DNA from: Girardia tigrina
Lineage: Eukaryota
DNA: 62,724 nucleotides
Direction: 5' to 3'
NCBI GenBank assembly: GCA_001938485.1
Contig: MQRK01245057.1
Span: forward strand, 1-62,724
The notes under the pieces were generated by a model. It was not told the origin of the DNA. It searched no databases and saw only the letters and a list, made by a program, of their open reading frames with translations. Within the stretch, counting starts at the first letter, position 1, and every line of letters begins with the position of its first letter. Positions 11,501-17,500 of the stretch are shown here, piece by piece. Made by a program: the position numbers and the translations under genes.

Positions 11501-14500
11501 ACTCATAATATAAGTATATAATCATCAATCACAGAGGTGCTTTTGCCGTTAGTGGAAAATCGCACTTAATGAAAATTTTTTAATATTGTGTTAAAGCGAA
11601 TTGAGCAAATATTTTTTAAAAAGATATAATAAATAAATTACTTCCTAAGAAGATTATAAAGATTTGAATATAGATGTACTTTAACCCTTTCGCAGCTGCT
11701 GGGACACATGTCCCAGTGAATGTTTAAAAAGGACTGAATTTAAAAGTTTCCATATAATATGGTATAAATGCGTCCCGAAGCGTCCCAACCTCCCCAGCCC
11801 GCCCCCTGAATAAATTTCCAAAAAAAACTTTTAAATAATAAATTTCAGACCGGAATAAACATTATATATTTAACAAAAATTATCTATAACTTAAAACGGA
11901 AAGCCGCTGCGAAAGGGTTAATGGAGAGTAATTACATAGAATAAATCTTTGATTATAACTAAATTCATTCAATATACTGGATTAAAGTTAATTTTAAATG
12001 AATTCAAACTAATATTAAATGAACGCTCCTATAAAATCGATTGATTAAAGGTTTTCAAATGAAAATCAATAAAGTAATTTTTAAGTACAATTTAAATGAA
12101 ATTAATCAATTACAAAATTTTTAATAGGAAATCATTAAAATTAATTTAATTGTGTATAATGGAAATCTTTATTCGAATAATTATTTGAAAACAATTCATT
12201 CTAAATTTTATTAATGTAGTTCTATAACAATTGATAGAAATTGTGGTATGAGTTATCATAGAGAAAATTCGAATTGTGATATTATTAGGTTGTCCTAAAA
12301 GTTCCCGGGCAATAATGAAAATACAATTTTTTTCAAATTTCTTTTATATATATATATATATATATATATATATATCGATTTATTTATAGCAATATATAGA
12401 ATCGAGATTACAAAGCTTGAAATCCGTGTGTTGCTGCGTCACTATTGGAAGAAAGGCTTGACAACACGAGATGCTGCCTAGGCAATTTGGAAAGTTGAAG
12501 GTACGCAAACGGTCGGAAAAAGTACGGCAATTGATTGGTTCAAACGTTTCAATAAAGGCAACTTTAACCTGAATGACAGTCCTCGTTCTGGACGACCAAC
12601 AAAATTGGATAACGATGACTCGCAAGCACAGTTGAACATGAAGCCTTTGTCAAGCACTCGCGATTTGGCATTTAAGCTTGGAGTTGGCAAGTCTACCATA
12701 CATTGGCATTTGAAGCAGCTCGACTTTGTGCACAAGAAACCACGTCAAGATCCACACGAACTCACCAAAGCACAGGCCGATAAAAGAGTCCAAATTTGCC
12801 GACAACTGCTACCGAATCCACGAGATGACGGCTTTTGGAAACGAATTGTGACGTCGGACGAGAAGTAGGTCTACTTGGTCAACCACAACCGAGACAAGCG
12901 ATGGGTTCCACCGGGTCAAGCAACGCCGTCAGTTCCAAAATAAGATCGATTTGGCTTGAAAATCATGTTGTGCGTCTGGTGGCACTTTGAGTAGGTTCAG
13001 AACGGCCAGACCATCAATGCAGAGCTCTATTGTCAACAGCTGGACCGTTGGCAGAAAGTAGTCGAAAACGATGGACTGTACTTTGAAGATTAATTGTTAT
13101 TTATTTAAAATAAATTCTTGCACAAAAAATTGTATTTTTCATTCTTGACCGGGAATTTTTAGGACAACCTAATAATAAAAATGTTGAAAATCTTATTACT
13201 GTTCTTAATAATTATTCAAAAGATGAATGATTATCGTTTGATAAATATTCCTCTTTTTTAAATATAAATAAAAATAATGATTAAACGTATAATCTATTTT
13301 ACACTGTTTGCATTTATAAATAACAGATGAACAGAGAGAAATGATAAAGAAGGAAAATAACGAGTTATCACAATAAAAAACTGAAGTAAAGATCAGTATG
13401 AGTCTAACGAATTACAAATATCTAGCGTTTGATCTTTTTTGCTGGAAATTTAAGATTTTGTACAATTTGGATAGCTGAATAACCATTTTATACAACTTTG
13501 ATACAATTTTGTTTTGATGTTAATATTTTTTAATTATAAACATGGTTTAAAATCAATCAACGAAAAGTTACACGGATAAGTATGTTTTAACCGCTATCAA
13601 TATCTATAACAAATTCATAAAAATGTAATAAATTAAAAAAAAAACAAATCAAAATAAAATGCAATTCTGACTCTTAAAAGATGTTGTTTTTATTGACGTA
13701 GTGAATACAATCAAATGTTATTAACCATTTTCTGTCTGATTATTGTTATTGTAACTGATGTCCGGCTGTAAGTAGTGATTTTGAATCAAAACATTCTTGA
13801 CTTTTTGTAAACTGAATTTATATTTTTTCGACTTCCAAGTACTTTATGAATAATTCTGAAGTTTACTATTTAAAGCTATTAATTTTTTTAAATTATCATA
13901 CTTATTTTATTACTATTATTAGAGATTTTATTTTTAAGAATTATTATAATTTTACTTAATTTTTTGTCTCATTTATTATCAAAATATTAAAAAAATATTA
14001 TTAAAAGAAGATGAGACTGCCAATCCATGAAAGTATCTTGAATACAAAAAGTATTGAGCGTTGTGTGGATAATGTTAATAATCTTTGTTTTTTTTGTTTT
14101 TTTTGGTACCGTAGCCTTTGGGCCGTGTGTGCACTCAATTATGTACCAGCATATGGCTTGGGTTTGCATATATATTTGAGTGTCTCAGTAGGCAAGGAAC
14201 TTGGTGGTGCCTATCTCCTCTCCAGGTATGGATGGCCGTTGGATCCAAGGAGCTCATCCACACTTTGCTAGGTTTTGTTTTTCATCCTGCTAGGTGTCCA
14301 CACACTTCGTCACCCAGGTTGCTCTGGGTGAGGCAGCCGGTTTAGTCACCAACTATTCGACCAGGGAATAGATATTACAGGTTTACATGGTACCTGTAGC
14401 AGACAGATTGCCTGACCTGACCTGTAGTCAATGGCCCCGCGATTTCCGTATCGGTCAACCAAAAAAGTACTAACGTGGGCGTTGGTTTCTTGACTTCGGA

Positions 14501-17500
14501 GATCGGACGAGATCCGACGTATCCAACTGCGGCCATCGACTACTACTCTAATTGGTTACTTTTGTACCTCACTAAAATTACATAAATATACAAAATATAC
14601 AATTGCATCACTATACAAAGAAAAAAATGATCGACCAAAAACCAGCTGTTATTTTACCTTTGATACGTTTTTTATGACTTTTTACTAATTGGTACTTTTT
14701 GTGACAAAATTAGTTGATGTTGTAATGTTTGCTGCTAAACTTTCTTTAAAATTTAACTGGTCTATACTGAATATGTATTTAAAACTGAATATTACAATCC
14801 TTAGCTATTATCGATTGATGATATTAAGAATGATGTGCCACTTGAATGTATTTCGATTTATTGTGATACCCTTTAGTATAATATATATTACTGTCTTTAA
14901 ATCAGGGAAATTCCACTCAATTATTATATTGCCTCAAGCAGAAAATTTCGGTTATCAAATCCTATAAATAATGCATATTATCAATGAATACACTGATACA
15001 TGTATTTTTATCTTATTCAATGGATCAGTTAACATTTCGCTTCACACTCATCTATGACCCGGTTAATTAATTCACAGCTAGGAAACAACTTGTGCCAGTA
15101 GTTGCAACAACAATTTAATCTGTTTGATCTGGACATCAGTTGAAAAAGCGCCTATCGTAATGTAAAAAGTAGAGCTATGTAAGGCTAAAAACCTGAAGGA
15201 AAACAAAACATATTTGCCTTCAGGCAAGTCTAGGATTAGATTCTGTGTAGTTAACTGTTTCATGCAAACTATTATCTCAGGTATTGTAATATGTATTGTA
15301 AGTAGCGTTTATGCCACTTTCATTATTATCATATTCTAGAGCCATGATTTAACACCACAAAAATTTATTACTATAACAATTCACATTTCTAAAACAAATT
15401 TTCCTGTTAATTTAATTTAATTATCTCGACCCAAATTAATCTATTAAATTCTTTTCGATTTAATTTTTAAAACCATGAAAATTTATTTCGAAAATTTATT
15501 TCAAAAAATTATTTAAACTTTATTTTCAAAATCAATTTTTTAAAATTTCTTATTAAAAATATTTTTATTTATAAATAAATATTTNNNNNNNNNNNNNNNN
15601 NNNNNNNNNNNNNNNNNNNNNNNNNNNNNNNNNNATTTTTTAAAATATTTAATAAGCAAATTAACATAAAAATATTTTACCCTTTAAATTAAAAAAATAA
15701 TAAACTATTCAGGCGAGATAAAAATTTAAAATTAACCCCTCATATGTATAAAACGTGCAATTGAATTTCGATAATAAAATGTTTGACAATAAACATCTTT
15801 AATTTTTTTTGAAAAAAAAATAAGAAAACATTATAGGCTCTAAAAGGTTAATATTATTAGAATTCCTTTGTATTAAGTTTTTGCCAAAATATGTCCACAA
15901 AATTTTGAATTATCTTTTACACAATTTTTATTGATTCAAAATAATCCACATAGAATATTAATTTCAACCGATTTCCTTAAATTTTACGCAATGAAACCTT
16001 TCTGAAAATGGGTATAAATGAATCTTATTTAAAGATGAACATTGATCAAATATATATCGTGTTATATATTACTTTAAGCAAGAAAAAAGTAGTAACAGCC
16101 ACTTAAACAATTAGTTTTTTTTGATCCAGTGTATTAAATGAGCGAACAGGTCGAAGAGGATTCGACAAATTCAGAAATGGAAATGGCGATCGTCAAGATG
16201 AACAACGCCCTTATAGGCCCAAAGAGATTAAAAATGAATTATATAAGTTTTTTGTCCAAGATCCGGCTCGACCGACTGCTGAGTTAGTAGAGCAATAAAA
16301 TTAGATAAATAAACAGTTTCGTGGTGTTAGAGTAAAATGCATAAATGCTTAAATTTTAAAGTTTAATAAATGGATTATATACAATTTTATTTCCGAAAAA
16401 AACAAATTTAACCTTTTGAATACGTGAATTTTGGTTTGTGCAAAATAAAATATAAACAATTTGTCGAAAATCGTTACTGGTTAAGAAAACCTGATTCTTT
16501 ATGATAATCAGGATAACGTGAAACAGTAGTTAGATCTAAGAAAACCTACAGTTGCATCACCAAATTCCCAAATTCAATGTAAAAAGGAAATATTAAGTGT
16601 ATAGTATATATATTCATCAAGACTGTAAGGATAAATAATTATATGATATTTATATTATCTTTATTATACTAAATGTATTACAATAATGTATCCAGAATAT
16701 TCAAATTAATCTCTTGAATTTGTTTAAATAATATTAACAACTCGTGTAATTTTTAAATCTAAAATATATATTTTCTGTTTTATAATCGTTGTTAATTATT
16801 ATGGAATCCTCTTACAAAGACTATTCTACTGCGCGTTACTAGAACCAAACAAAACAATAAATGCTGAGCTCTACACACTAGAATTGAAACGCTCGAACTA
16901 AGACATTGATGAAAAAGTTTAATGGACATGAAAAACGAAAGGTCTTTCTTCAGCATCAAAATGCTCCGTTACATATTGCAATAATATTGCAATATCTAAA
17001 CAAGTATTTATTGAACAAGGTTCGGAGTATTTGCATATCCAGCTATTGCTTACGATCGATCATTTATTTATTTACTGCTCAATCATTTATTTAGATTGAT
17101 GAAACATTTTATGCACGGATGCAAGTTAAAAAATAATGGAGAACTCACAATTTGATATTAAAATGACATTGAATTATATACTATAATAGCGATTACTTTG
17201 ATTACTTATGATAGCTTATTTTTTCAAATTATTATTTTTTAAAAATCGTTGATTACTTTTTAAACGATGTAGTAGCAAAACTTGCTTAAGACAATTATTC
17301 TGGGACCACTGATGGACTTGGCTTGAGACACTACCGTGTTTCTCCAAATATAAGATATCCCCCCGTATAAATTTAAAGACTTTTTTGGGAATATTAATAT
17401 AAGACATATGCTATATATTCTAGTATAAGACCTACTGGTAATTTTTCCATCAAAATTATTATAAGACAGTGTCTTAAATTTCGAGAAACACGGTACAAAT

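Follow-up and report, generated by a model that had tools for sequence, protein, structure and literature searches.

A 5S rRNA-headed SINE in a TPP2 intron: probably a decayed copy of an abundant family that took its 5S shape from host 5S rRNA

We identified a 458-nt element on the minus strand (14084-14541) of Girardia tigrina contig MQRK01245057.1 (assembly GCA_001938485.1), the whole analysed stretch of which, 62,724 nt, is called the window below. The element is probably a decayed copy of an abundant, dispersed short interspersed element (SINE) with a 5S rRNA-derived head (SINE3), whose 5S shape came from the 5S rRNA of its host without special selection. The sole Rfam match in the 62.7-kb window is to the 5S rRNA model RF00001 (14426-14540, minus strand, 61.9 bits, E-value 1.4e-10, full model), above the gathering score of 38 bits; thus the lack of such a match, which the initial annotation had named as a ground for dropping its 5S-like unit, was not observed. 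The head continues without a terminator into a roughly 320-nt body and then an A-rich tail (14105-14084), as had been described: the only T-run within the element is a T6 inside the head, and the next one downstream is at 14050, beyond the tail. The GC content of the element is 50%, versus 21-27% in its flanks. Its parts are as follows.

14426..14541, minus strand: 5S rRNA-derived head; RF00001 match, full length minus 4 nt of loop A.
14170..14425, minus strand: 5' part of the body; delimited by contig loose ends at 14424 and 14170-14175, also existing without the 5S head, and putatively derived from the 5' untranslated region (UTR) of a long interspersed element (LINE).
14106..14169, minus strand: 3' part of the body; summed depth 4.7e5-6.4e5 in sequencing run X1 (see below), putatively the 3' end of a LINE, which the reverse transcriptase would recognise.
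14084..14105, minus strand: A-rich simple-repeat tail; C followed by eight A, twice over, and finally CAAA.
14461..14466, minus strand: T6 run in helix IV / box C; copy-specific, and expected to halt RNA polymerase III (Pol III) after about 76-80 nt of the head.

Part of the element is present in 20 of the 24 public sequencing runs listed, which represent four coded organisms and environmental samples. We aligned the contigs of four runs to positions 13750-14949 at 80% likeness, namely, X1 (organism A, DNA), X3 (organism B), X5 (organism C) and X6 (leaf-litter total RNA), excluding 14079-14108 as a repeat, so that the form of the tail at the family level lies outside these data; the habitat labels of the other 16 element-bearing runs were not used as evidence. 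The contigs aligning to the element number 6273 in X1, 268 in X3, 536 in X5 and 35 in X6. In X1, the summed depth is 2e5-1e6 across 14110-14549 and zero across the unique flank at 14590-14949, and up to 127 distinct contigs carry the same majority letter at one position, with the counting capped at 128; neither summed depth nor contig number is an exact copy count. The majority letters are identical among organisms A, B, C and X6, and the head-body junction is spanned by contigs in all four runs (records 7, 8, 15, 16, 23, 24 and 30-32). At the 5' boundary (14541-14542), six X3 contigs continue into dissimilar AT-rich flanks, and therefore the element begins at the first 5S base. The family is high-copy and dispersed, with a 5S head followed by a non-5S body and then an A-rich tail. 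Patchy cover of 13790-14029 in X1, X3 and X5 falls on very AT-rich sequence, and we took it as unspecific. None of the words of the element is present in three 2013 runs of organism A, a 31-mer of the window copy has no match in metagenome contigs, and pattern scans of prokaryote genome contigs and viral contigs returned no match. The head motif has one match in the metagenome contigs, in an ordinary eukaryotic 5S gene without the element body, hereafter L001 (944-1062, minus strand), which is intact, T-run-terminated and scores 91.4 bits.

The SINE criteria were taken from the available text of SINEBase (PMC3531059). The element is shorter than 1 kb and interspersed, with one copy in the window by self-comparison and varied flanks at 14542, and it is abundant in organism A (6273 contigs, up to 127 distinct ones per position), which may differ from the species of the window. 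For a SINE3 head, the required identity to 5S rRNA is 60% or more across 60 nt or more; here, the RF00001 match is full, and 39 of 45 nt of the core are identical to L001, while a closer match would be expected with the 5S of the host itself. The body of about 320 nt is attached to the head in the contigs of four runs. Accordingly, the earlier proposal of a 5S-derived SINE is supported by a high-copy dispersed family of this layout, while its qualification as undescribed stands only in part: we found no description of the family, but an expanded SINE/5S class has already been reported for Dugesia. In the open full-text literature, which does not include Repbase, Dfam or most subscription papers, we found no description of this 5S-headed family or of structure-conserving SINE3 heads; in a full-text motif search, the 20 papers listed of 45 all matched one and the same 11-mer and are unrelated by title.

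A dispersed 5S rRNA gene, or a simple 5S pseudogene with unrelated unique flanks, would also account for a full-length RF00001 match with a closed helix I. However, the body equals or exceeds the head in abundance and is attached to it in four runs, no terminator follows the head, and the score is 30 bits under that of the intact gene L001. Loop A is moreover short by 4 nt, no T-run occurs from 14426 to 14050, and the head contains the internal T6, all unlike a functional 5S gene. This explanation is largely refuted, and we regard it as extremely improbable. We give equally little credence to the idea that the element is the long terminal repeat (LTR) of a 5S-bearing terminal-repeat retrotransposon in miniature (TRIM) like Cassandra or Ajax: such 5S-carrying TRIMs exist, including in nemerteans, according to the available text of PMC10886601, but our element begins at the first 5S base and ends in an A-rich tail, and Ajax has only the promoter part of 5S. 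A TRIM has two LTRs with the 5S inside the repeats, a primer-binding site (PBS) as well as a polypurine tract (PPT), whereas here the 5S lies at the extreme 5' end, and there is no second copy in the window.

The contigs also delimit the parts of the body. Loose ends fall at the head-body junction, 14424, in four X3 contigs and six X5 contigs, and at 14170-14175 in larger numbers (46 and 63 in X1, 11 in X3, 16 and 10 in X5), where the departing contigs run on into another sequence, which retains the ATG that the window copy has at 14169; each loose end is visible for 30 letters, with an agreement of 0.56-0.62. An internally deleted LINE, reduced to its 5' UTR and 3' end and joined to a template-switched 5S head, would give these two boundaries, and thus the contig boundaries suggest a LINE origin of the body. 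The headless body forms and the second 3' continuation after the ATG may represent the 5' UTR and the reading-frame start of the partner LINE. At 14334-14306, a hairpin whose loop reads GCAAC precedes a purine-rich stretch; judged by eye, without a score, this segment resembles pieces of RTE 5' UTRs in the available part of the PMC5786205 supplement. In the window copy, a relaxed descriptor of the hepatitis delta virus-like ribozyme, the double pseudoknot of RTE 5' ends, found no match with 0 or 1 mismatch, and no Rfam ribozyme matched up to an E-value of 10. The window contains no tRNA, and so the element has no tRNA module.

The same boundaries could be explained if the body were a headless, internally deleted non-autonomous LINE, and the 5S-headed copies were by-products of template switching rather than a self-propagating Pol III SINE. 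Contigs ending exactly at 14424 in X3 (4) and X5 (6) and a head depth in X1 (2.1-3.6e5) lower than that of the body (4.7e5-1.0e6) fit this explanation. However, the head depth is still of the order of 1e5, junction-spanning contigs occur in all four runs, 5' truncation and the clustered mismatches of the window copy also predict a lower head depth, and independent chimeras would not have one common loop A deletion; hence we consider it improbable. In the SINE mechanism that we propose instead, a template switch would have fused an entire 5S RNA with a LINE that had lost its interior and kept its 5' UTR and 3' end, active masters would be transcribed into an RNA of about 450 nt, and the LINE enzyme would insert copies by target-primed reverse transcription. 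The window copy would have landed antisense in an intron of the tripeptidyl-peptidase II (TPP2) gene, then drifted by about 5% from the family majority, and gained the T6 and changes in boxes A and C, owing to which it is likely silent.

Turning to the head itself, 32 of the 34 Rfam consensus pairs are formed in the window copy. Helix I has 10 pairs, one of them G-U, and helix III and the loop motifs quoted in the initial annotation are present; in the RF00001 alignment, however, four nucleotides of loop A are deleted. The initial annotation had described a 5S-like unit with paired helices, and this holds as far as the 61.9-bit match, helices I and III and the loop motifs are concerned, but helix V has an A-C mismatch (14476 versus 14439), and in the Rfam register of helix II G14524 is opposite A14488, the pairing described earlier being an alternative register. 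The minimum-energy fold of the head is non-canonical for 5S and only weakly better than those of shuffled sequences (z -1.82; 13 of 200 as good), while the whole element folds better than its shuffles (z -3.68; 0 of 100 as good). Since the true 5S gene L001 scores no better than the head in the same test (z -0.68), the test has little power for the head. A 5S head would carry an internal Pol III type 1 promoter, made up of box A, the intermediate element and box C.

It had further been proposed that the diverged 5S domain of the window copy keeps its fold through compensatory changes, and for this copy the data do not support it. Of the 136 variant rows, the 40 with the best support were analysed; in 21 of them the X1 majority letter is not that of the window copy, and X3, X5 and X6 agree with X1, giving a divergence of about 5% overall. 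In these 40 rows, majority differences fall at 7 of 116 head positions versus 14 of 316 body positions (Fisher p 0.46); since departures are no rarer in the head, the head is no more conserved than the body. We overlaid the seven head changes by hand on the 5S structure, in which the eukaryotic helix IV register was taken from established knowledge and the other pairs from Rfam. Four break pairs, namely, 14488 (helix II), 14476 (helix V), and 14464 and 14448 (both helix IV); of the others, 14458 spoils the GNRA loop D, 14492 is neutral in a loop and 14479 adds a pair. None is two-sided, and the pattern is one of neutral decay. At 14464 the majority letter on the minus strand is A (90-100% of depth in all four runs), and 14462 is A in 26-79%; therefore the T6 is private to the window copy, which fits the earlier suggestion that it may inactivate this copy.

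Whether the fold of the family head, as opposed to that of the window copy, was inherited from host 5S or selected is a separate question, for which the appropriate reference is the 5S of the host and not the typical metazoan 5S used in the initial annotation. In its majority form, the head differs from the Rfam consensus by two-sided changes, one in helix III and two in helix IV, and all 8 canonical pairs of helix IV can form with the majority letters, as we determined by hand. However, over helices II-III the intact gene L001 agrees with the head at 39 of 45 nt, the swapped pair among them, and at two of the six sites that differ there it has the family-majority letter; with its flanks, 73 of 130 columns are invariant against the head. 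Since an ordinary 5S gene has nearly the same helix II-III letters, inheritance from host 5S is the simpler reading, and the fold of the family was likely inherited from the host's own 5S rather than selected. Helices I, IV and V of L001 differ from those of the SINE head, while helices II-III nearly match. In one X6 contig, loop A is intact and the helix I 5' strand can pair in full with the 3' strand of the head; this contig is a candidate for the real 5S of the lineage. A C allele at 14510 accounts for 25% of the depth in X1, where 34 contigs carry it; in both X3 and X5 it stands at about 2%, and in X6 at 100%. It possibly marks true 5S rDNA, and is not clearly linked to the allele at 14517.

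The alternative is that the head of a SINE3 master copy was selected for a 5S fold after it had parted from host 5S, the transcript binding TFIIIA or uL18/uL5 and thereby gaining stability or access to ribosomes making LINE protein, as Alu does with SRP9/14. Such selection would explain why helix IV in its majority form can make all 8 canonical pairs, with two-sided changes in two of these and, in 26-79% of depth, an A where the bulge usually lies, why helix V gains a 5-pair core in the majority form (by hand), why organisms A, B, C and X6 share their majority letters, and why the 5' part is kept here while other SINE3 heads lose it. Against it, both ends of helix V have non-standard oppositions in the majority form, the ordinary 5S gene L001 has the same helix II-III letters, and other copies apparently also lack the loop A nucleotides and have two outer pairs of helix II broken, which disfavours strict selection for the fold. 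Record 24 of X5 covers the head and is longer by one letter on balance, the alignments of six X3 contigs extend as far as 14542, and among 12 of the 22 indel rows there is no 4-nt insertion. We therefore consider selection for the fold unlikely, although clearly less so than any of the other alternatives.

Several points weigh against the preferred reading of a decayed SINE3 copy with an inherited 5S shape. The fold comparison was made with L001 and the Rfam consensus in place of the host's own 5S, the X6 contig may be a SINE subfamily instead of a 5S gene, and the variant analysis rests on the 40 variant and 12 indel rows mentioned above. Helices I, III and IV of the head are retained in several organisms, which needs either recent capture or selection. 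In the published SINE3 and Ajax heads, mainly the promoter is kept and the part upstream of it has diverged, as far as the available text of PMC10886601 describes them. Organism A may not be the species of the window, since X1 does not cover the flank of the locus. No target-site duplication (TSD) was found at the window copy, the best shared words being AT-rich 6-8-mers away from the ends; this copy is old, and TSD-less copies are known in HaSE3.1 from the accessible part of its description. No 3' end common to a partner LINE was found elsewhere in the window, and the link to RTE consists of the contig boundaries and a weak likeness by eye. Finally, Pol III transcription of the family is predicted by analogy with SINE3 biology, as the contigs give no strand, start or level.

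According to the early literature, the 5S rRNA of freshwater planarians is unusually divergent. In a search for a planarian 5S sequence, there was no 5S probe in the PMC6884822 supplementary file, and no match in the available text of PMC12294053.

The element lies antisense in the first intron, of about 13.5 kb, of the TPP2 gene, surrounded by remnants of transposons.

5519..19017, plus strand: approximate first intron of TPP2, from tblastn of the public protein P0001 (residues 1-59 at 5342-5518, residues 56-102 at 19018-19158); splice sites approximate.

The TPP2 gene spans 5342-54310 of the window (plus strand) in 14 aligned pieces with several long introns. Its pieces share 71% identity with P0001, against a maximum of 44% for the next nine best proteins fetched; the best named relatives of P0001 are from an annelid (47%) and a snail (45%), none exceeding 47% over residues 10-470. 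The GC content of the window is 30%. The host is thus a fast-evolving animal rich in A+T, probably a freshwater planarian. Broken transposon remnants are found at 7741-8370, 9238-10158, 12482-12865, 30378-30920 and 43890-44585 (two Tc3-type, an IS630-like, a DDE_1 and an integrase core). A repeat with two copies of 94-96% identity (6714-7306 and 24353-25032) and inverted ends (6714-6866 and 7124-7288) resembles a small DNA transposon. The reading frames at 52749-53474 and 25013-25237, neither with a Pfam match, share one motif, which we take to be a Penelope-type GIY-YIG. A C2H2 zinc-finger-like frame (40796-41125, minus strand) inside a TPP2 intron has a weak Pfam match under the curated cut-off.

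If our best reading is right, it adds another independent and very successful SINE3, likely a planarian one, in a group in which the class has been counted and we found no description of the family, and the family could be used as a marker across related species. It also calls for caution, in that Rfam 5S matches in such genomes would mostly be SINEs. The headed and headless forms with one junction could reveal the birth of a SINE from an internally deleted LINE. Were the head selected for its fold, the family would make it possible to test directly whether 5S heads have a role beyond providing a promoter, and if 5S-binding proteins were involved, it would offer a 5S counterpart of the Alu-SRP9/14 strategy, with the RNA protected or docked on ribosomes.

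The following comparisons draw on the openly available portions of the sources. The Dugesia genomes contain an expanded SINE/5S class alongside LINE/RTE (bioRxiv 10.64898/2025.12.11.693146, section 2.4). Like our family, these are 5S-headed SINEs of freshwater animals with more than 70% A+T, our window having a GC content of 30% and our family occurring in several organisms and freshwater samples. The Dugesia class is known from automatic class labels and proportions, so that the likeness is one of class and not of sequence; perhaps the family of the window has already been counted there at the class level. CoeSINE5 of the coelacanth and HaSE3 of Lepidoptera consist of a 5S head, an RTE 5' UTR and an RTE 3' end (PMC5786205, PMC3272025), and in the model of Kojima 2018 (PMC5786205) an internally deleted LINE acquired its 5S head by template switching. 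Our element shares with them the 5S head, body and simple-repeat tail, and its boundaries suggest the same bipartite LINE body; however, in HaSE3 the 5' part of the head has degenerated, whereas ours keeps helix I. Six motifs of the element have no match in the accessible Kojima 2018 supplement, in which occurrences of GGTCAGG sit in unrelated head regions. Cassandra and Ajax (PMC10886601) are likewise non-autonomous retroelements that use 5S, but they are LTR elements with a PBS and a PPT, while our element has the ends of a SINE. The defining layout of SINE3 (Kapitonov and Jurka 2003, as cited elsewhere), namely, a 5S head with a type 1 Pol III promoter, a body and a LINE-dependent tail, is matched by the element in the window in its 5S head, body and tail, with a predicted promoter and a putative LINE dependence; SINE3s arose independently several times, and the family described here likely represents a separate origin.

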